Assembly: GCF_050920415.1 (NCBI RefSeq)
Contig: NZ_CP169309.1
From: Escherichia coli
Lineage (GTDB): Bacteria; Pseudomonadota; Gammaproteobacteria; Enterobacterales; Enterobacteriaceae
Direction: 5' to 3' (one strand)
Length of the DNA stretch: 64,000 bases
Shown: positions 4,699 to 43,667 of the stretch, one piece after another
Position numbering within the stretch: the first letter of the stretch is position 1
Layout of the letters: the number at the start of each line of letters is the position of its first letter
Program-made: the position numbers and the translations under genes
Notes under the pieces: model-generated
The model's database searches: none
Seen by the model: the letters and a program-made list of their open reading frames with translations, nothing else
What the model was told of the DNA's origin: nothing

Positions 4699-5346
4699 TT
4701 ACACCTCTTCGGCGGCAGGTAGCGGCCAGCCTCCCAGACGTTTCCAGCGGTTGACGATTTCACAAAACAGCACAGCAGTGCGTTCGGTGTCGTACAGCGC
4801 GGAGTGCGCCTGGGTGCTGTCGAAGTCCATGCCAGCGGTCTGGCAAGCCTTTGACAATACGGTTTGTCCGAGTGCCAGCCCGGCCAGTGCAGCAGTGTCA
4901 AAAGTGGCGAAAGGGTGGAACGGGTTACGTTTCAGTGAGGCGCGTTCTGCGGCGGCCATCATAAAGCTGTGATCAAAATTGGCGTTGTGCGCCACCATAA
5001 TGGCGCGGTTACAGCCGCTCGCTTTAATGCCTTTACGTACAACTTTAAAAATTTCGTGCAGCGCCTCGTATTCGCTGACCGCGCCGCGATCGGGATCGTT
5101 CGGGTCAATGCCGTTGAAGGCGAGGGCCTCTGGCTGCAAATTTGCGCCGACAAATGGTTCTACGTGGAAATGTAATGTGGTGTCCGGCATCAGCCAGCCT
5201 TGTTCATCCATTTTCAGGGTGATGGCGGCAATCTCAAGCAGCGCATCGGTTTTAGCGTTAAATCCGGCTGTTTCAACATCGATCACAACAGGATAAAAAC
5301 CACGAAAACGGTCGCACAGACCGGTAAGTTGAGCGTTATCGGACAT
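4699..5346 (-). CDS. rnt: Ribonuclease T (DEDD 3'-5' exoribonuclease)
   Basis: ORF track 215 aa; sequence recognised as RNase T; sits between gloA and lhr as in E. coli. Confidence 0.95.
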
Positions 5347-5448
5347 CTGATTCTCTTAATACGGATAAATTGCAGCGCGCATTATGACAAATATTACTTG
5401 TCGATGCAGTAAAGATGCGGGCGCGATGAGTTCACGCCCGGCAGGAGA

Positions 5449-5856
5449 TTAGTTGCCCAGACCGCGACCGGCGTCTTTCTCTTCGATTAATTCAATTTTG
5501 TAACCGTCCGGATCTTCCACAAACGCGATAACCGTAGTGCCGCCTTTTACCGGACCCGCTTCACGGGTGACGTTACCGCCGTTCTGACGGATTTTTTCGC
5601 ACGCTTCAGCGGCGTTATCTACGCTAAGCGCGATGTGACCATAAGCAGTGCCGAGTTCGTATTTATCCACGCCCCAGTTGTAGGTCAGTTCAATCACCGC
5701 TTCTTCGGTTTCCGGGCCATAGCCAACAAACGCCAGTGAGTATTTGTATTCCGGGTTTTCGCTGGTACGCAGCAGTTTCATGCCCAGTACTTTGGTATAA
5801 AAATCGATGGAGCGTTGCAGATCGCCAACGCGCAGCATGGTATGAAGAAGACGCAT
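5449..5856 (-). CDS. gloA: Glyoxalase I (lactoylglutathione lyase)
   Basis: ORF track 135 aa ([20 protein letters not shown]...); VOC/glyoxalase family, expected length. Confidence 0.95.
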
Positions 5857-5936
5857 CTTTATATCCTCAAAATGGCTAACAGATTCAAAATGTTGTTTTA
5901 GTATAGCGGCGGCTTTGCGCCGCTCGCAATGCTGGA

Positions 5937-7034
5937 TTACAGCGTCGGGTAATCGGTATAGCCTTCCGCGCCGCCACCGTAGAAACTTTCGGCACGCTGT
6001 GGGTTAAGCTCAGCTTTGCGCTGCAAGCGGGCAACCAGATCCGGGTTCGCAATCCAGTCACGACCAAATGCCACCGCATCAATTAACCCTTTGCCGATCA
6101 GCGTTTCAGCTTTTTCTACCGTGTATGCCCCTGCGCCGATAATCGGACCGTGGAAACGGGCACGTACTTTTTCGCGGAACGCATCAGTATACGGTTCACC
6201 TCCCGCCCAATCTGGTTCTGACATATGCAGATAAGCAATGCCGCGTTTGCCCAGTTGTTCAATCAGATACAGTGCATCGGCTTCTTCATTTGGGCCATTA
6301 TCCGTGTTCTGGAAAGTACCGATTGGCGAAACACGAATGCCAATGCGATCGGCACCCCATTCTTCAATCCCGGCATCGACCACTTCCAGCACCAGACGTG
6401 CGCGATTTTCCACGCTGCCGCCGTACTGATCGGTACGATGGTTTGAAGAAGGAGAAAGGAACTGATGCAGTAAATAACCGTGAGCAGAGTGTAGCTCCAC
6501 CAGATCAAACCCAGCTTCACGGGCGTTAGCGATGGCCTGGCGGAAATCATTGACGATGCCCGGAATCTCTTCCCGTTCCAGTGCTCGTGGCATGGATGTT
6601 TCAACGCGGATCGCCTGACCTTTTTCATCGCGCAGAGAAGTACGCGTTCCCGCGCTAAGTGCAGAAGGCGCTACCGGTGCCTGACCGCCAGGCTGCAGGC
6701 TGGCGTGAGAAATTCGCCCCGTGTGCCACAGCTGCACGGCCATATGACCATTTTCAGCATGAACGCCAGCGGTGATTTTTTTCCATGCGGCAATTTGCTC
6801 CGGACTATGGATGCCAGGCGCGCCTGCATATCCTTTTGCCTGGGCGGAAATTTGCGTGGCTTCGCTAATAATCAAACCGGCACTGGCTCGTTGGCGATAG
6901 TATTCCGCCATCAACGGGGTAGGGATGTCACCCGGTTCAATACTGCGCAGACGCGTCAGCGGTGCCATAAAAATACGGTTTGCCGCCGTGATCGCGCCCA
7001 CTTTCAGTGGGGAATACAGTTTTTCAGATGACAT
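5937..7034 (-). CDS. nemA: N-ethylmaleimide reductase (Old Yellow Enzyme family, FMN-dependent)
   Basis: ORF track 365 aa; OYE-family sequence; downstream of nemR in the same orientation. Confidence 0.95.
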
Positions 7035-7070
7035 AAAGGCTCCCGGTGGTCTGGTGATAAAAAATGCCTG

Positions 7071-7670
7071 CTAAACGGCAGGCGTCGCAATAATGGTTTT
7101 TACATGGGCCAGCGCGTTTTCCAGTGGCTCGAAACTGCGCGAAATTTTGGCCTGCAAATTCGCGCCAAGCCACAGTGCGTAAAGCACTTGTGCCTGTTGC
7201 AGCGGTTCGCCACAAAAGGTTAAACAATGGTTCTCACGGCCATTTTCCAGCGCCTGAGAGAGCAGGGCGATTACGCCGCGAGCCCCTTTATCCATCGCGC
7301 TGCGCATATCTTCTGACAGATCGCACACTTCGGCAGAGAGTTTTACTGTCAGGCAACCACTGATGGTTCCATGTTGGCAAAACTGGTTCAGTGTTTGCTG
7401 GTAATAAGCCAGTATGCGGTCGCGGTAGTTACCTTCGCCGGATTGCAGCAACTCCGTCAGTCGCTGGTGATATGCGGCGTAATGGCGCTCAAGCATGGCA
7501 ACGCCAAACGCTTCTTTAGAGCGAAAGTAGTGATAGAAGGACCCTTTCGGCACTTCAGCCGTTTTTAGTAATTCGCTTAGCCCCATCCCGGTGAATCCAC
7601 GTTGCAGGCAAAGTTGCTCGCCCGTCGCCAGGAGATGTTCGCGAGTATCATGTTCGGTGTGTTTGTTCAT
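7071..7670 (-). CDS. nemR: TetR-family electrophile-sensing repressor NemR
   Basis: ORF track 199 aa (MNKHTEHDTREHLLATGEQL...); TetR N-terminal HTH; NemR-box palindrome 15 bp upstream. Confidence 0.95.
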   Translation of the reverse strand: MNKHTEHDTREHLLATGEQLCLQRGFTGMGLSELLKTAEVPKGSFYHYFRSKEAFGVAMLERHYAAYHQRLTELLQSGEGNYRDRILAYYQQTLNQFCQHGTISGCLTVKLSAEVCDLSEDMRSAMDKGARGVIALLSQALENGRENHCLTFCGEPLQQAQVLYALWLGANLQAKISRSFEPLENALAHVKTIIATPAV

Positions 7671-7684
7671 GTGTTGGAGTGTAG

Positions 7685-7700
7685 TAGACCAGTCGGTCTA
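7685..7700. promoter_or_regulatory. NemR box (16-bp perfect palindrome TAGACCAGTCGGTCTA) in nemR promoter
   Basis: Perfect inverted repeat seen 15 bp upstream of the nemR start; matches the published NemR operator as I recall it. Confidence 0.8.
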
Positions 7701-7772
7701 GTGCAAGCAAAGTTGCTACTTTGGGCATTAACAGCTTCAATAATGGTAATAATCTTATCTGAGGAGGGCGAG

Positions 7773-8012
7773 GTGGCGGAGCAATTAGAGTTCTTTCCCG
7801 TCCAGAGCCCGTGCCGGGGAATTTGCCAGTCTGACGAACGCGGATTTTGTCGCGGCTGTTTTCGTAGTCGGGATGAGCGTTTTAACTGGAATAAAATGAG
7901 CGATGGCGAAAAACAAGAGGTGCTGCGCCTTTGTCGGCAGCGATTAATGCGCAAATTACGTGCAATTAAGCCAGCGTCATCAGACGAACCGGAGCAACCA
8001 TCACTCTTTTGA
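7773..8012 (+). CDS. ydhL: Small Cys-rich DUF1289 protein YdhL (79 aa, GTG start inferred)
   Basis: C-terminal part of ORF 7602..8012; expected product length 79 aa requires GTG at 7773 (.AEQLEFFPVQSPCRGICQ...); start is inferred. Confidence 0.65.
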   Translation: MAEQLEFFPVQSPCRGICQSDERGFCRGCFRSRDERFNWNKMSDGEKQEVLRLCRQRLMRKLRAIKPASSDEPEQPSLF

Positions 8013-8060
8013 GCCTAATCTTGCGTATACTCCTCTCATATCTGATAAGAGGAAGCGATT

Positions 8061-8957
8061 ATGGTTCAGCGTATTACTATTGCGCCGCAAGGCCCGGAGT
8101 TTTCCCGTTTTGTGATGGGCTACTGGCGATTGATGGACTGGAATATGTCCGCCCGCCAGCTGGTCAGCTTTATTGAAGAGCATCTGGATCTCGGCGTAAC
8201 TACCGTGGACCACGCTGATATTTATGGCGGCTATCAGTGCGAAGCAGCGTTTGGCGAGGCGCTGAAACTGGCACCTCATCTGCGTGAACGGATGGAAATT
8301 GTCAGCAAATGCGGTATCGCGACGACCGCGCGTGAAGAAAACGTCATTGGTCATTACATTACTGACCGCGATCACATCATTAAGAGCGCCGAACAGTCGC
8401 TGATTAATCTCGCGACCGATCATCTGGATCTGCTGTTGATCCACCGCCCGGACCCGTTAATGGATGCCGATGAAGTGGCGGACGCGTTTAAACACCTGCA
8501 TCAGAGCGGCAAAGTGCGCCATTTTGGCGTATCGAACTTTACGCCTGCGCAATTTGCGCTGTTGCAATCACGCCTGCCGTTTACCCTTGCCACTAATCAG
8601 GTGGAAATATCCCCGGTGCATCAGCCGTTACTGCTGGATGGCACGCTCGACCAACTGCAGCAACTGCGTGTTCGTCCGATGGCGTGGTCTTGCCTTGGTG
8701 GTGGTCGTCTGTTTAATGATGATTATTTCCAGCCTCTGCGTGATGAACTGGCTGTGGTGGCGGAGGAGTTAAACGCGGGCTCTATTGAACAGGTGGTTTA
8801 CGCCTGGGTTTTACGTTTACCGTCGCAGCCGCTGCCGATAATCGGCTCCGGTAAAATTGAGCGCGTGCGAGCAGCTGTTGAAGCAGAAACCCTGAAAATG
8901 ACTCGCCAACAATGGTTCCGTATCCGTAAAGCGGCACTGGGTTACGACGTACCGTAA
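8061..8957 (+). CDS. ydhF: Aldo-keto reductase family oxidoreductase YdhF
   Basis: ORF track 298 aa (MVQRITIAPQGPEFSRFVMGYWRL...); AKR family. Confidence 0.9.
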   Translation: MVQRITIAPQGPEFSRFVMGYWRLMDWNMSARQLVSFIEEHLDLGVTTVDHADIYGGYQCEAAFGEALKLAPHLRERMEIVSKCGIATTAREENVIGHYITDRDHIIKSAEQSLINLATDHLDLLLIHRPDPLMDADEVADAFKHLHQSGKVRHFGVSNFTPAQFALLQSRLPFTLATNQVEISPVHQPLLLDGTLDQLQQLRVRPMAWSCLGGGRLFNDDYFQPLRDELAVVAEELNAGSIEQVVYAWVLRLPSQPLPIIGSGKIERVRAAVEAETLKMTRQQWFRIRKAALGYDVP

Positions 8958-9037
8958 GCACTTTTAGGAATAGCCGCCGTTCAAAAAAGTGTCACTGGTT
9001 TACACTTATTCAGGAATGCACAATGAACGGAGGTCCT

Positions 9038-9559
9038 ATGAAACGTTTTAGTCTGGCTATTCTGGCGCTGGTTGTTGCTACCGGCGCGCAAGCTGCCAGT
9101 GAAAAAGTCGAGATGAACCTCGTCACGTCGCAAGGGGTTGGGCAGTCAATTGGTAGCGTCACCATTACTGAAACCGATAAAGGTCTGGAGTTTTCGCCCG
9201 ATCTGAAAGCATTACCCCCCGGTGAACATGGCTTCCATATTCATGCCAAAGGAAGCTGCCAGCCAGCTACCAAAGATGGCAAAGCCACAGCGGCGGAATC
9301 CGCAGGCGGGCATCTTGATCCACAAAATACCGGTAAACATGAAGGGCCAGAAGGTGCTGGGCACTTAGGCGATCTGCCTGCGCTGGTTGTCAATAATGAC
9401 GGGAAAGCTACCGATGCCGTCATCGCGCCTCGTCTGAAATCACTGGATCAAGTCAAAGATAAAGCGCTGATGATCCACGTTGGTGGCGATAATATGTCCG
9501 ATCAACCTAAACCGCTGGGCGGTGGCGGTGAACGCTATGCCTGCGGTGTAATTAAGTAA
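9038..9559 (+). CDS. sodC: Periplasmic Cu/Zn superoxide dismutase
   Basis: ORF 9023..9559; start set at MKRFSLAILALVVATGAQA (signal peptide) giving 173 aa; Cu/Zn-SOD His-rich motifs. Confidence 0.93.
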   Translation: MKRFSLAILALVVATGAQAASEKVEMNLVTSQGVGQSIGSVTITETDKGLEFSPDLKALPPGEHGFHIHAKGSCQPATKDGKATAAESAGGHLDPQNTGKHEGPEGAGHLGDLPALVVNNDGKATDAVIAPRLKSLDQVKDKALMIHVGGDNMSDQPKPLGGGGERYACGVIK

Positions 9560-11572
9560 TTAAGAGGCCAGCGTACCTTGCGGCGGTGCTTGCTCAAGTT
9601 GCGAAAGCGAGCAGTACAGCCGCCAGACAATTGCCGCCAGGTCCTGGGCGGCAGGTTGATGATGACGGGCAAGGCTGTCGCAAATCCGCTGTAATTCTGC
9701 AAGTGTGGCCGCCAGTGATTTTTGCTGAACGCCACGCTCACTCATCACTCCACGTAACAATGAAATACAGTTATCCCGTACTCGCGATAACGGATCGGAA
9801 CGCGATTCCCATTCGCGCAATTGCCAGACAACATGAGAACAGTTCAACAACACCACCCCCCAGCGTAATAACCAACGGCGAGCCAGCGCATCCTGGCTGT
9901 TACTTAACTGACTGACGTGATGATAAGTGAGTGATTCAAAATCGCTTTCACTCAGTGTTGGATGGCGGCTTAGTTGGTCGACAAAATCCCGGCGCAGTGC
10001 GCGAATATGACGACGGCTTTTACGAGCATCCGACCCAGGTCGCAGAATGGCGAACGCTAGCCACGCCAGCGCTACGCCAACAATTTTTGCCAGATTATCA
10101 TTAAGAAAATCAGCGAAATCATACACCGGAGGATTAGTGACAGCGATAAACGACCCCATAAATACAATCAGTTGTCCCCAAAGCGCGGCAAATTTGGGCA
10201 TCTGCAATTTAAGAAGCTGCATTGTCGCCAGTAGTGGGAAGAGAAACAGTAAAAATTGCCACAGATCGCTAATCTGAACCATCAGGCCAAATTTGACCGC
10301 AAAGCTAAATAGCGAAAGTAACACTAGCGTGCGCATTAGCAGTGACAAGGACTTAAACGGTGCCGCGACGGCGGAGTAGAGTACGCAGCTAATTGCGGCC
10401 AGCGTTAATGCATTGGCACCGGCATCCCATTGTGAAGCGATACTCCATGCGCCAATTATCATCAATGTACAAAATGTTCGTAGTCCGCTCCACATAGCTT
10501 CGGCGTTATCGGTATGACGTGCCAGGCCGGATGTCCGTGGGAGTTTGGCATGATCATCTACGCCGCTTTGCAGACGATGTAATTCCTGACTGCTTTGCAG
10601 ATAAAGATGGCAAAAATAGCGTAGTCGCTGCCAGAAGGCGACGTGCCGGTAGTCGGCGACGTTGGTCGGGCGTAGCGGGGCAATAATACGTGCGACGGTG
10701 TAAACATCTGTTTGCGAACTGGCGAGCGCCGTCAGCAACTGTTCGAGAATTTCTCGTGTGGCACCTGGCGGTGAGGGCCAGTTGAGCAACATACGTCGCA
10801 GGCTGGAAATGACGCTGGTCATACGTAATTGCTGGTGGAGCAGCGCATTAAGGCGCGCGTTTTGCTGGCGAAAACGATAGTGGCTCCAGAAAGCCTGGAT
10901 ACGCAGCAAATTCATGGTCAGTATCTGCCCAATCACCCCCTCATGTGCTGCACGAATGGCATCGGTTGTTTCAGGCTGCCAGAGTAAACTGGCATGTTCC
11001 AGCAATCGGGCGTGCATGTTTTTCAATGCGGTTAAAAGGGCTGTAGCATCGGAACTGCTCGGCAGGATCATCATCATCATGCCGCCGCACAAAATACCGA
11101 CAATCACCTCGCAAACGCGCGCCTGAGCGATATCCCACAGCTGGCTGGCCTCAGTAATATTAACCATCGGAAAGGCGATGATGGCAGCCGTGTAGCCCGC
11201 CAGTTGAAATGCATACGCGACGTTATTCGTGAAGTGCGCACAGGCCCAGGTACAAAAGCCAATCCATGCTGACATACTCAATAGAAAAAACCACGGCTCG
11301 TTGAGCGTATGTCCGGCAAGAAGCAATGCCGCGATGGCTCCCAGCAAACTACCCGCGATGCGTCCGAGGCTTTTGCTGATCACACCGCCAACGGTGGGAA
11401 AGCTAACCACGGCAGCCGAGGTCATCGCCCAATAGGGCTCATCAAGATTCAAATAATAGGCAATCGTCAGCGCCAGACACATGGCAATGGTATTGCGTAA
11501 CGCATAACGCCATTGCGCCAGCGTGGCCCTGAACCAGGGCAAATTGCGCAAGGACCATGACGATGCACTCAT
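9560..11572 (-). CDS. ydhK: FUSC-family (AaeB-like) inner-membrane efflux protein YdhK
   Basis: ORF track 670 aa, multi-pass hydrophobic; last gene of ydhIJK. Confidence 0.9.
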
Positions 11573-42158: not shown

Positions 42159-43667
42159 TTACTGCTGCGGAATAGCGGGTACAGCTGGAACGTTTAATGC
42201 CGGCATCGCAAACATCCCAACAAAATCTTCCAGTGGCATTTTCTGCCCGTTTAACGTGATCTGACCGTTAGCATATTGCAGGCTGGTGGTGATGGTATTG
42301 TCCTGCAAGGTGGTCAGACGGAACATCTGCCCCATTGCTGATGCACCTTCAACTTGCTGTTTCGCCAGTTTTTTCGCTTGATCTTCCTGATAACCTTCCA
42401 GCTTCGCTACCTGAGTCATCAACTCAGTTGCCATATCCACCGGAATGGTCAGTTTCGCATCCAGAGATTTAACCGAGCGGTCTACTTCCTGTGCCAGCGT
42501 TTGCGGCGCTTCTTTTGTCGTTGCCGGATCTTTCAGGAACAGCGACAGATTCAACGCACTTTCACCCTGACTGTTTTTCCAGCTTAACGGCGCGATAGTA
42601 ATCACCGGATCGCCTTTCAACATCAGCGGCAGGGCGCTAAAGAAGGCTTCCGTCACTTTCTCCTGATAAAGTTCGGGATTGTTGGCAATCTCTGGCTGTG
42701 CCAGAAGCGCCTGAGTTTGCGCGTTATATTGCTGACTAAACTGATGCCAGGCTTCGCCATCAATCTGGCCGACTTTTAAAGTCAGCTTGCCGCTGCCCAG
42801 ATCCTGATTCTGTACCTTAAGGCTATTTAGCGAGTAATCCAGTTGGCTATTGATCGTTTTACCGTCATTGACCAGATCCGATTTACCGCTGATCTCTATG
42901 CCTTCCAGCAGTGCCAGTTCTTTGCCTTCCACTGAAATGGTCATTTTCTCCAGCGACAGTTTTTGGTTTCCTACGCGCTCACCAAAACTTGCCAGCGTGC
43001 TGGAACCGTCGGTTTTCAGATTATTAAAGGTTAACTGCACTTTCTGGTTGTATTCGTTAACCGCGTCTACCCGACCACTTTGCGCCTCTCCGGAAAGGGA
43101 GATAGCTTTGCCGTCTTTGTCAGCATTTAACTGGAACTCGCCGCCGCTAAAGGCGACTTTTTCATCCTTTTGTTCGTAATTCAGTGGCTTGAGCGAAATA
43201 TCGGAACTGGAATCTCCGCTGTAACCAATGCGGGAGTTAATCTCAAAAGGCGTTTCACCCTTTGCCATATCAAACAGTGGCTTGCTTACTTCGTTATTGA
43301 CCAGCGTAGTTTGAATTGATGCCATAGACGGGATCAGGTTCAGTTTTTTAAGCTGGGCAAAGGGGAAGGGGCCATGATCAACTGATTCGTTGAAGATGAC
43401 GCTCTGACCACTTTTAATCCACGGATTTTCTTTTCCGGCAACGGGTTTCACCAACAGCTGCAACTGGCTGCTGAATACGCCGCGATGATAGTTTTGATAA
43501 CTTACTTCCAGATTGGATTCAGGAGCTGTCAGTTTGAGTTGCGCGTTCGCCTGCGCGACCATGTCTTCGAGATGGGTTTCTATCTTCTTGCCTGTATACC
43601 ATGCGCCGCCTGTCCAGACTACGCCTAGCGCAACAATGACGCCTACCGCTACCAGCGATTTATTCAT
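42159..43667 (-). CDS. ydgA: DUF945-family protein YdgA
   Basis: ORF track 502 aa; N-terminal TM/signal-anchor. Confidence 0.88.
   Translation of the reverse strand: MNKSLVAVGVIVALGVVWTGGAWYTGKKIETHLEDMVAQANAQLKLTAPESNLEVSYQNYHRGVFSSQLQLLVKPVAGKENPWIKSGQSVIFNESVDHGPFPFAQLKKLNLIPSMASIQTTLVNNEVSKPLFDMAKGETPFEINSRIGYSGDSSSDISLKPLNYEQKDEKVAFSGGEFQLNADKDGKAISLSGEAQSGRVDAVNEYNQKVQLTFNNLKTDGSSTLASFGERVGNQKLSLEKMTISVEGKELALLEGIEISGKSDLVNDGKTINSQLDYSLNSLKVQNQDLGSGKLTLKVGQIDGEAWHQFSQQYNAQTQALLAQPEIANNPELYQEKVTEAFFSALPLMLKGDPVITIAPLSWKNSQGESALNLSLFLKDPATTKEAPQTLAQEVDRSVKSLDAKLTIPVDMATELMTQVAKLEGYQEDQAKKLAKQQVEGASAMGQMFRLTTLQDNTITTSLQYANGQITLNGQKMPLEDFVGMFAMPALNVPAVPAIPQQ

Follow-up and report, generated by a model that had tools for sequence, protein, structure and literature searches.

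The window, that is, the whole 64-kb stretch of E. coli chromosomal DNA analysed here, contains the well-studied nemR-nemA-gloA detoxification operon, the biology of which is already known. The whole arrangement is very probably best explained as a classical TetR-type operon, in which NemR acts on an operator that occupies the spacer of the nemR promoter and to which the divergently transcribed ydhL gene is simply adjacent. Gene identities, position and uniqueness of the NemR box, promoter geometry and conservation were determined in our analysis; for the transcriptional starts, repression by NemR, the chemistry of its cysteines and readthrough we rely on the literature.

The nemR-nemA-gloA Locus

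The three genes follow each other on the minus strand. The gene nemR (7071–7670) encodes a TetR-family electrophile/HOCl-sensing repressor of 199 aa, nemA (5937–7034) encodes the N-ethylmaleimide reductase, a 365 aa protein of the Old Yellow Enzyme family, and gloA (5449–5856), which carries this name in annotated E. coli genomes, encodes glyoxalase I (lactoylglutathione lyase, 135 aa). Gene order, strand and coordinates are all in agreement with the original prediction. Its identification of the module as the NemR electrophile/bleach operon was likewise supported, by the NemR match, by the NCBIfam cut-offs and by the regulon known from the literature. NemR matches PDB 4YZE (NemR) over residues 1–199 (E = 2.6e-126) and consists of the Pfam domains TetR_N (N-terminal HTH) and TetR_C_13 (C-terminal). 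NemA passes NCBIfam NF007899 (762.5 bits, cut-off 403) and contains Pfam Oxidored_FMN, and GloA passes both NF007629 (305.6 bits, cut-off 246) and TIGR00068 (183.6 bits, cut-off 120).

The translated nemR reading frame contains Cys21, Cys98, Cys106, Cys116, Cys149 and Cys153, as well as Lys175. All residues with a role in sensing (reviewed in PMC5297802), namely Cys106 together with Lys175 and the pair Cys21/Cys116, are thus retained. According to the literature, NemR loses DNA binding when its cysteines are modified, and its regulon consists of nemRA-gloA, with gloA being reached by readthrough (PMC3739934, PMC5297802). Deletion of nemR leads to increased expression of nemA and gloA (PMC3739934).

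The locus was found in 5425 of 5426 complete E. coli genomes, and the DNA of the compared region is 96.8% identical to K-12. The K-12 nemRA-gloA locus (b1649–b1651; Umezawa 2008, Gray 2013, Lee 2013, Ozyamak 2013) agrees with it in gene content and order, relative strands and spacers, has an identical box, −35 and −10, and is flanked by the same divergent neighbours ydhL-ydhF-sodC. Within the intergenic region of 102 bp the two differ by three SNPs, all of them outside the box and the promoter hexamers. At the protein level they differ by one residue in NemR (T192 versus N), by two amino acids in NemA and by one in YdhL.

The NemR Box Fills the Spacer of a Leaderless Promoter

The NemR box TAGACCAGTCGGTCTA (7685–7700, no strand assigned) reads TAGACCGACTGGTCTA in the direction of nemR and is a 6+4+6 inverted repeat. 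An interval of 14 nt separates it from the nemR ATG, and one of 72 nt from the GTG of ydhL (7773). A perfect 16-bp palindrome had been predicted in front of nemR; the box is indeed present at this place, but only its two 6-bp arms are perfectly complementary, while the central AGTC is not self-complementary. A repeat listing gave longer, imperfect arms of 11 nt (82%) around the same 4-nt centre, which differs between species (GACT, GATC, AATC, GAAC and others). The pattern TAGACCNNNNGGTCTA occurs once in the window, versus no occurrence in 100 shuffles. The sole match with two mismatches, at 42469, falls within coding sequence of ydgA; as it corresponds to chance expectation, it was rejected as a second NemR site.

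We take the palindrome at 7685–7700 to be the published NemR footprint, an assignment that mutant evidence and conservation make probable; the NemR box is said to have been defined by footprinting in the studies of Umezawa 2008, Gray 2013 and Lee 2013. In 5209 genomes, the 33-nt segment that covers the −10 region, the box and the −35 region shows an identity of at least 99%. In honey-adapted E. coli, an exchange of G to A at −19, which corresponds to position 7689 of the window and belongs to the right half-site of the box, arose in four lines, and a glyoxal-resistant mutant altered in the NemR-binding site was reported (PMC5297802). A full-text literature search yielded nothing useful on the sequence of the NemR box, the NemR iModulon or leaderless nemR.

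The box is flanked by the −35 hexamer TTGCAC (7701–7706, minus strand) and the −10 hexamer TACACT (7678–7683, minus strand) of nemR. It takes 16 of the 17 spacer positions (−30 to −15 in relation to the published start), and the operator hence overlaps the nemR promoter between its −35 and −10. The transcriptional start of nemR at 7670 (minus strand) is the A of the ATG (Kim 2012, PMC3415461). This start was mapped in E. coli (TSS 1724047, 5′ UTR of 0), and the 5′ UTR of the nemR orthologue from K. pneumoniae is likewise 0 (Kim 2012, PMC3415461). Since the published start coincides with the A of the ATG, the nemR mRNA is leaderless. No Shine-Dalgarno-like sequence is present in CTACACTCCAACAC upstream of the nemR ATG, and a Cappable-seq supplement has no rows at the start coordinates of nemR and ydhL. 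The succession of −35, box, −10, 6–8 nt and ATG is the commonest layout among Enterobacterales loci that have the box (33 of 38), and two of the five loci that deviate from it are artefacts of an out-of-frame ATG.

In the proposed mechanism, a NemR dimer would bind to the inverted repeat in the sigma-70 promoter of nemR, and because the repeat fills the 17-bp spacer, bound NemR would exclude RNA polymerase. Modification of Cys106, Cys21 and Cys116 by NEM, methylglyoxal, glyoxal, quinones or HOCl would lower the affinity of NemR for DNA. A leaderless nemR-nemA transcript would then begin with the first base of the nemR ATG, and partial readthrough via the terminator-less nemA-gloA spacer would raise glyoxalase I above the level provided by gloA's own promoter.

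Spacers, Hairpins and a Second Box-Like Element

The co-oriented genes are separated by spacers of 36 nt (nemR-nemA) and 80 nt (nemA-gloA). Scanning the sequence of the 80-nt spacer revealed no terminator-like site, but a sigma-70-like candidate promoter for gloA, TTGCGA-18-TATACT (5900–5929, minus strand). This fits the literature, in which an independent gloA promoter was predicted and readthrough into gloA is assumed because there is no marked terminator (PMC3739934; PMC5297802). A terminator-like hairpin with a 9-pair stem and a weak T tail is located between gloA and rnt (5418–5440, minus strand). Another one, GCCTGC/GCAGGC (7056–7083, minus strand), overlaps the nemR stop codon and precedes a T run. 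Its stem shows compensatory changes across genera, and this hairpin could restrict co-transcription of nemA beyond what the simple model assumes.

Most other Enterobacterales have a second 15-bp box-like element, TAGWCGACYGGTCTA, at a distance of 10–18 nt before the nemA ATG. Cross-species comparison revealed that E. coli lost this element by two small deletions. An eroded remnant, CAGACCACCGG (7043–7053, minus strand), is left, from which the right half-site is deleted. Two functions considered for the element were rejected. By eye, the sequences compared contain no acceptable −10 (A at position 2, T at position 6) at a suitable distance that would place it in a nemA promoter. A role as an RNA hairpin was dismissed as well, since the A to T exchange that is common in its left arm has no counterpart in the right arm, which is invariant.

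A possible reading, which we nevertheless regard as doubtful, is that the ancestral nemR-nemA unit had two operators, the second of which served as a roadblock and was lost in E. coli, and that ydhL-ydhF became weakly coupled to the system. The first box would act in the nemR promoter, and the second would follow the terminator hairpin and precede the ribosome-binding site of nemA. NemR bound to this second box would stall polymerase at the U tract of the terminator; nemA-gloA would be kept off, while autoregulation of nemR would still be possible. Loss of the element in E. coli would have resulted in the simpler one-operator circuit of the window. In the Escherichia/Citrobacter lineage, loss of the intervening phosphoethanolamine-transferase-like gene would have brought the promoters of ydhL and nemR into a back-to-back position. 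If true, this could couple ydhL-ydhF weakly, and in a lineage-specific manner, to electrophile stress.

ydhL Has Its Own Conserved Promoter

The gene ydhL (7773–8012, plus strand) lies outside the operon and encodes a small, Cys-rich DUF1289 protein of 79 aa with a GTG start; the next gene, ydhF (8061–8957), encodes an aldo-keto reductase. The promoter of ydhL (7713–7741, plus strand) consists of a −35 hexamer TTGCTA (7713–7718), a 17-nt spacer and a −10 hexamer TTCAAT (7736–7741). Transcription starts at 7748 (plus strand), and the 25-nt 5′ UTR includes the Shine-Dalgarno sequence GAGGAGGG. This corresponds to the mapped start (TSS 1723969, UTR 25; Kim 2012, PMC3415461). The divergent starts of nemR and ydhL are 78 bp apart, and their −35 hexamers 6 bp. 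Reading the conserved ydhL promoter as a sigma-E promoter or a mar-box was dismissed on inspection, since spacing and core bases do not match.

According to the original prediction, the palindrome is shared with the ydhL promoter region, which was thought to suggest co-regulation. Both promoters do share one intergenic region of 102 bp, but the box is located outside the ydhL core promoter, which it neither overlaps nor abuts. It covers positions −63 to −48 in relation to the ydhL start, with the centre at −55.5, and 12 bp remain between it and the ydhL −35 downstream. The ydhL promoter, TTGCnn-17-TTCAAT, is kept in each of the 33 ydhL-bearing loci. In 15 of them ydhL has the same promoter and is located 0.85–3.7 kb away from nemR, and in these separated species no box matching at 10/12 or better is present within 850 bp of ydhL. 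The operator thus does not travel with ydhL. Its distance to the nemR ATG is fixed across species, whereas its position with respect to ydhL ranges between −52.5 and −96.5 (16 of 18 loci with adjacent genes; E. albertii is outside the 200-nt scanned window and E. coli L002 is at −55.5).

By genomic SELEX, NemR was classified as a single-target regulator with the regulon nemRA-gloA. In a K-12 transcriptome in which nemR was increased 8.8-fold and nemA was induced, the tags expected for ydhL and ydhF are missing from the list of differentially expressed genes. Among the RNAseq rows listed for HOCl-treated CFT073, a tag close by, c2040, shows a change of about 2-fold with the same sign as that of nemRA, with c2039–c2041 unmapped to ydhF/ydhL.

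An influence of the operon on ydhL may also be indirect: derepression of the nemR promoter would shift ydhL expression by steric competition between polymerases or by supercoiling, without any contact of NemR. We consider this rather unlikely. Polymerases with typical footprints (about −55 to +20) would overlap at approximately 7693–7725, and the small change of c2040 would fit an effect of supercoiling, provided that c2040 is ydhL. In the K-12 data set, however, any such effect stayed below the cut-off. Moreover, nemR and ydhL are juxtaposed only in lineages in which the phosphoethanolamine-transferase-like gene between them is absent, and this arrangement is therefore not a conserved design.

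We see only a slim chance that ydhL, too, is under direct repression by NemR bound to the shared box, which would make ydhL (and ydhF) part of the electrophile/HOCl regulon. The short distance of the box to the ydhL −35 would be compatible with such a control, as footprints of TetR-family proteins can exceed the core palindrome and the imperfect arms extend to 11 nt. Overexpression of ydhL scored for resistance to H2O2 and HOCl in an ASKA screen, and the c2040 response to HOCl would agree with direct control if this tag were ydhL. ChIP-chip after methylglyoxal treatment, a single experiment of low resolution, showed an RNA polymerase region over 60% of ydhL, and one SELEX summary gives four targets for two NemR peaks, a number that may include the genes on either side. 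Against direct repression stand the position of the box, which overlaps neither −35, −10 nor start of ydhL and is not conserved in relation to this gene, the 15 box-less ydhL loci, the single-target listing in SELEX and the missing ydhL/ydhF tags in spite of the 8.8-fold increase of nemR. Taken together, these data do not support co-regulation. As ydhL has a separate and conserved promoter, shared control by NemR is unlikely rather than refuted. We infer the independence of ydhL from the promoter geometry, from genome comparison and from a single transcriptome table, and the lack of overlap between box and ydhL promoter suggests that NemR does not directly repress this gene.

It is hardly credible that the palindrome is mainly a site for RutR, another TetR-family protein, with NemR control being secondary, although the RutR consensus TTGACCAnnTGGTCAA presumably resembles the box at 11 of 14 specified positions. 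A published table places nemR in the RutR regulon and a review has RutR binding upstream of nemRA-gloA, but the same review assigns RutR no part in controlling nemRA-gloA (PMC5297802), the increase of nemA and gloA expression upon nemR deletion contradicts this view (PMC3739934), and box and nemR occur together across Enterobacterales, with the box at a fixed place in the promoter.

Discussion

The circuit resembles TetR/tetO modules, in which a repressor with a TetR_N HTH and a C-terminal ligand/sensor domain binds to a palindromic operator over its own promoter, and derepression results from a loss of DNA affinity. Unlike TetR, NemR responds to covalent modification or oxidation of cysteines and not to reversible ligand binding (PMC5297802), and nemR is co-transcribed with its targets instead of being divergent to them. 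Other Enterobacterales (Citrobacter, Enterobacter, Kluyvera, Yersinia, Serratia, Morganella, Providencia) share with the window a leaderless-type nemR promoter with the box in its spacer and nemA directly after nemR, and in most of them gloA and rnt are located downstream. In contrast to E. coli they have the second box-like element before nemA, and in many of them the phosphoethanolamine-transferase-like gene separates ydhL from nemR. In Morganella, Providencia and Budvicia the locus lacks gloA and ydhL.

The operon is important for survival of methylglyoxal, quinones, NEM and bleach, and this role is established. Our analysis adds a precise map, which identifies the operator with the spacer of a leaderless promoter, and a comparative case for ydhL as an independent neighbour, which guards against reading too much into a reporter experiment. 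As a Cys-rich protein that scored in an oxidant-resistance screen, YdhL is nevertheless worth watching. The analysis further reveals that a second operator-like element, which is widely conserved in front of nemA, is absent from the E. coli model system. Since E. coli is devoid of this element, conclusions on the NemR circuit may not be transferable to Citrobacter, Enterobacter, Yersinia and Serratia.

Identity of the nemR-nemA-gloA locus

Positions 5300–8100 were matched by 5425 of 5426 complete E. coli genomes at 80% of the length or more, with rnt, gloA, nemA, nemR and ydhL annotated, and positions 5300–9600 are 96.8% identical to K-12 MG1655 without gaps. Only 13 of the 5425 genomes reach 99% identity with the window at this core locus, which, together with the identity to K-12 of about 96.8%, places the strain in a sparsely sampled E. 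coli lineage. The genes nemR (7071–7670), nemA (5937–7034), gloA (5449–5856) and rnt (4699–5346) are located on the minus strand, while the plus strand carries ydhL (7773–8012, starting with GTG), ydhF (8061–8957) and, as third gene of this series, sodC. NemA scored 762.5 bits (cut-off 403) and GloA 305.6 bits (cut-off 246). NemR contains the domains TetR_N and TetR_C_13, matches the solved NemR structure 4YZE (E=2.6e-126), differs in one residue from the K-12 protein and has Cys21, Cys106, Cys116 and Lys175 all present. YdhL, 79 aa long, belongs to DUF1289 and shows the motif CxxxC...CxxC. The gene identities are secure: profile scores, domains, the 4YZE match and the near-K-12 sequence confirm the E. 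coli nemR-nemA-gloA module named in the original prediction. Both the locus and the operator have been described before.

The NemR box is the spacer of the nemR promoter

The box TAGACCAGTCGGTCTA is found at 7685–7700, exactly where the original prediction had placed a perfect 16-bp palindrome. On inspection of the sequence, perfect complementarity holds for the 6-bp arms and not for the 4 bp between them (AGTC); a repeat listing also gave, around this centre, longer arms that are imperfect. In the window the pattern TAGACCNNNNGGTCTA was found once, in 100 shuffles not at all, and allowing two mismatches added one match, within ydgA, which equals chance expectation. In honey-adapted E. coli (honey being rich in methylglyoxal), four lines carried a G to A change at position 7689, which is −19 relative to nemR and −84 relative to ydhL and corresponds to the second G in half-site GGTCTA. 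Another reported mutant, resistant to glyoxal, has its change in the NemR-binding site. The centre of the box varies among species (GACT, GATC, AATC, GATT, GAAC and others), and in 5209 E. coli genomes the 33-nt stretch with −10, box and −35 shows an identity of 99% or more. The in vivo mutants support the box as NemR operator and, together with the conservation, back our assumption that the palindrome at 7685–7700 is the footprinted NemR box.

Read in the direction of nemR, the upstream region is TTGCAC / TAGACCGACTGGTCTA C / TACACT / CCAACAC / ATG, that is, the −35 hexamer, a spacer of 17 nt, 16 of them taken up by the box, the −10 hexamer and 7 nt before the start codon. The operator is thus the promoter spacer itself, the simplest arrangement for steric exclusion. 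No Shine-Dalgarno sequence is present upstream of the nemR ATG. According to supplementary data of Kim et al. 2012 (PMC3415461), nemR transcription starts at the A of the ATG (1724047) and the 5′ UTR is 0, and the same holds for the K. pneumoniae orthologue; the nemR mRNA is therefore leaderless. A cross-species scan with one genome per species yielded 80 loci of NemR relatives. The box lies between TTGCAY or TTGACC and TAnnnT in 38 Enterobacterales loci, the gap between −10 and ATG being 6–8 nt in 33 of these 38; the promoter layout is conserved.

Two other features were observed in this region. On the plus strand within nemR, CTGGTTCAGTGTTTGCT (7383–7399) matches IA14, a sigma-54 binding site described as intragenic by Bonocora et al. 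(2015). The site runs antisense to nemR, in the direction of ydhL. A 16-nt direct repeat with 15/16 identity (TGCAGGCAAAGTTGCT at 7603–7618 and TGCAAGCAAAGTTGCT at 7702–7717) has one copy in nemR codons 18–23, including Cys21, and an intergenic copy spanning both −35 hexamers. By a rough estimate such a repeat within 250 bp is very unlikely to arise by chance, and the intergenic copy seems to be specific to Escherichia.

Operon structure and a second box-like element

It is known from the literature that NemR represses nemRA-gloA, that NEM, methylglyoxal, quinones or HOCl inactivate it through cysteines, and that transcription reads through from nemA into gloA. The window sequence agrees with all three. 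The 80-nt nemA-gloA spacer contains a promoter-like site (TTGCGA-18-TATACT), no terminator-like site was found in it, and a hairpin is located 3′ of gloA.

In the nemR-nemA spacers of survey loci L004–L038 and L067, a 15-bp box-like element, TAGWCGACYGGTCTA (TAG(A/T)CGAC(C/T)GGTCTA; box 2), is present 10–18 nt upstream of the nemA start codon in 33 of 36 Enterobacterales loci outside Escherichia, and with three mismatches in three more. It follows a terminator-like hairpin (GCCTGC...GCAGGC) with a T run, which overlaps the nemR stop codon (7056–7083, minus strand) and whose stems covary across genera (GCCTG/CAGGC, GCCCG/CGGGC, GCCGG/CCGGC). Shortly past the hairpin, at 7053, 19 nt before nemA, Kim 2012 (PMC3415461) reports a weak 5′ end of 3 reads. 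In E. coli two small deletions removed the right half-site of box 2 and, behind the T run, about 8 nt, so that the relic CAGACCACCGG (7043–7053) remains. Changes in the left arm are uncompensated, GGTCTA being invariant, and this favours a DNA site over an RNA hairpin. We speculate that a roadblock at box 2 would stall the polymerase on the U tract of the terminator, in agreement with the spacing.

ydhL is probably not coupled to nemR

In the same start-site table (Kim et al. 2012, PMC3415461) ydhL starts at 1723969, window position 7748, with a 25-nt UTR. Its plus-strand promoter consists of −35 TTGCTA (7713–7718), a 17-nt spacer and −10 TTCAAT (7736–7741). The box is upstream, at −63 to −48 (centre −55.5), and ends 12 bp from the −35.

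TTGCnn-17-TTCA(A/C)T occurs in all 33 loci with ydhL, adjacent to nemR or not, with TTCACT in three Enterobacter loci. From Yersinia to Escherichia (loci L002–L038 and L067) this promoter is unusually invariant, with CTTGC at −35 and (G)YCTTCAAT including the −10, which hints at a constraint beyond sigma-70 recognition, e.g., some additional regulator. A second 6+4+6 inverted repeat, CAAAGTTGCTACTTTG (7708–7723), overlaps the ydhL −35; it is statistically unremarkable and was not seen in the other genera whose ydhL upstream sequences were compared. E. albertii has about 120 bp extra between the conserved promoter and the ydhL start, the distance from −10 to start being 151 nt versus about 30 elsewhere.

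Expression data on ydhL are thin. For BW25113 in an atmosphere of diesel exhaust, nemR (+3.13 log2) and nemA (+2.29 log2) top the list of differentially expressed genes, from which gloA and the tags presumed, by adjacency, to be ydhL and ydhF are missing. After HOCl treatment of CFT073 the change is 3.0 log2 for nemR, 2.7 for nemA and 1.05 for gloA; the nearby tag c2040, possibly ydhL, changes by 0.97, which is not specific since sodC also moves by 1.4. One methylglyoxal RNA polymerase ChIP-chip experiment covered part of ydhL, with a resolution that is insufficient for telling the promoters apart. In an ASKA screen ydhL overexpression scored for resistance to H2O2 and HOCl, so that a link of ydhL to oxidant stress, independent of NemR, is possible. 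We consider it probable that there is no meaningful coupling between nemR and ydhL. Indirect coupling of the two promoters, whose −35 hexamers are 6 bp and whose starts are 78 bp apart, is unlikely. NemR is a single-target regulator with the regulon nemRA-gloA in genomic SELEX papers, and an earlier SELEX table lists 2 peaks and 4 targets. Direct co-repression of ydhL by NemR is quite improbable.

The distance from the box to the nemR ATG is fixed across loci. Relative to the ydhL start, the box centre is at −52.5, −55.5, −63.5, −66.5, −73.5, −74.5, −80.5, −81.5 or −96.5 in the 16 measurable adjacent loci. In 15 species of Enterobacter, Cedecea, Erwinia, Mangrovibacter, Yersinia and Serratia, ydhL is 0.85–3.7 kb from nemR; the box remains beside nemR in all 15, and none with at least 10 of 12 matches was found within 850 bp of ydhL. 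Co-regulation of ydhL through the box, as originally suggested, is supported neither by promoter geometry nor by comparative genomics; the latter speaks for assigning the box to nemR alone.

In Enterobacter, Yersinia and Serratia the intervening gene is a 547-aa ORF in the same direction as nemR, labelled phosphoethanolamine-transferase-like by reading its sequence motifs, and Cedecea has a truncated 213-aa relic of it between ydhL and nemR (ORF or relic at 2324–3973 in L006, 2242–3885 in L032, 2230–3873 in L035 and 3289–3930 in L024). ydhL is next to nemR in Escherichia and Citrobacter because this gene is absent there, and in E. coli the two genes seem to have become neighbours as a side effect of its loss.
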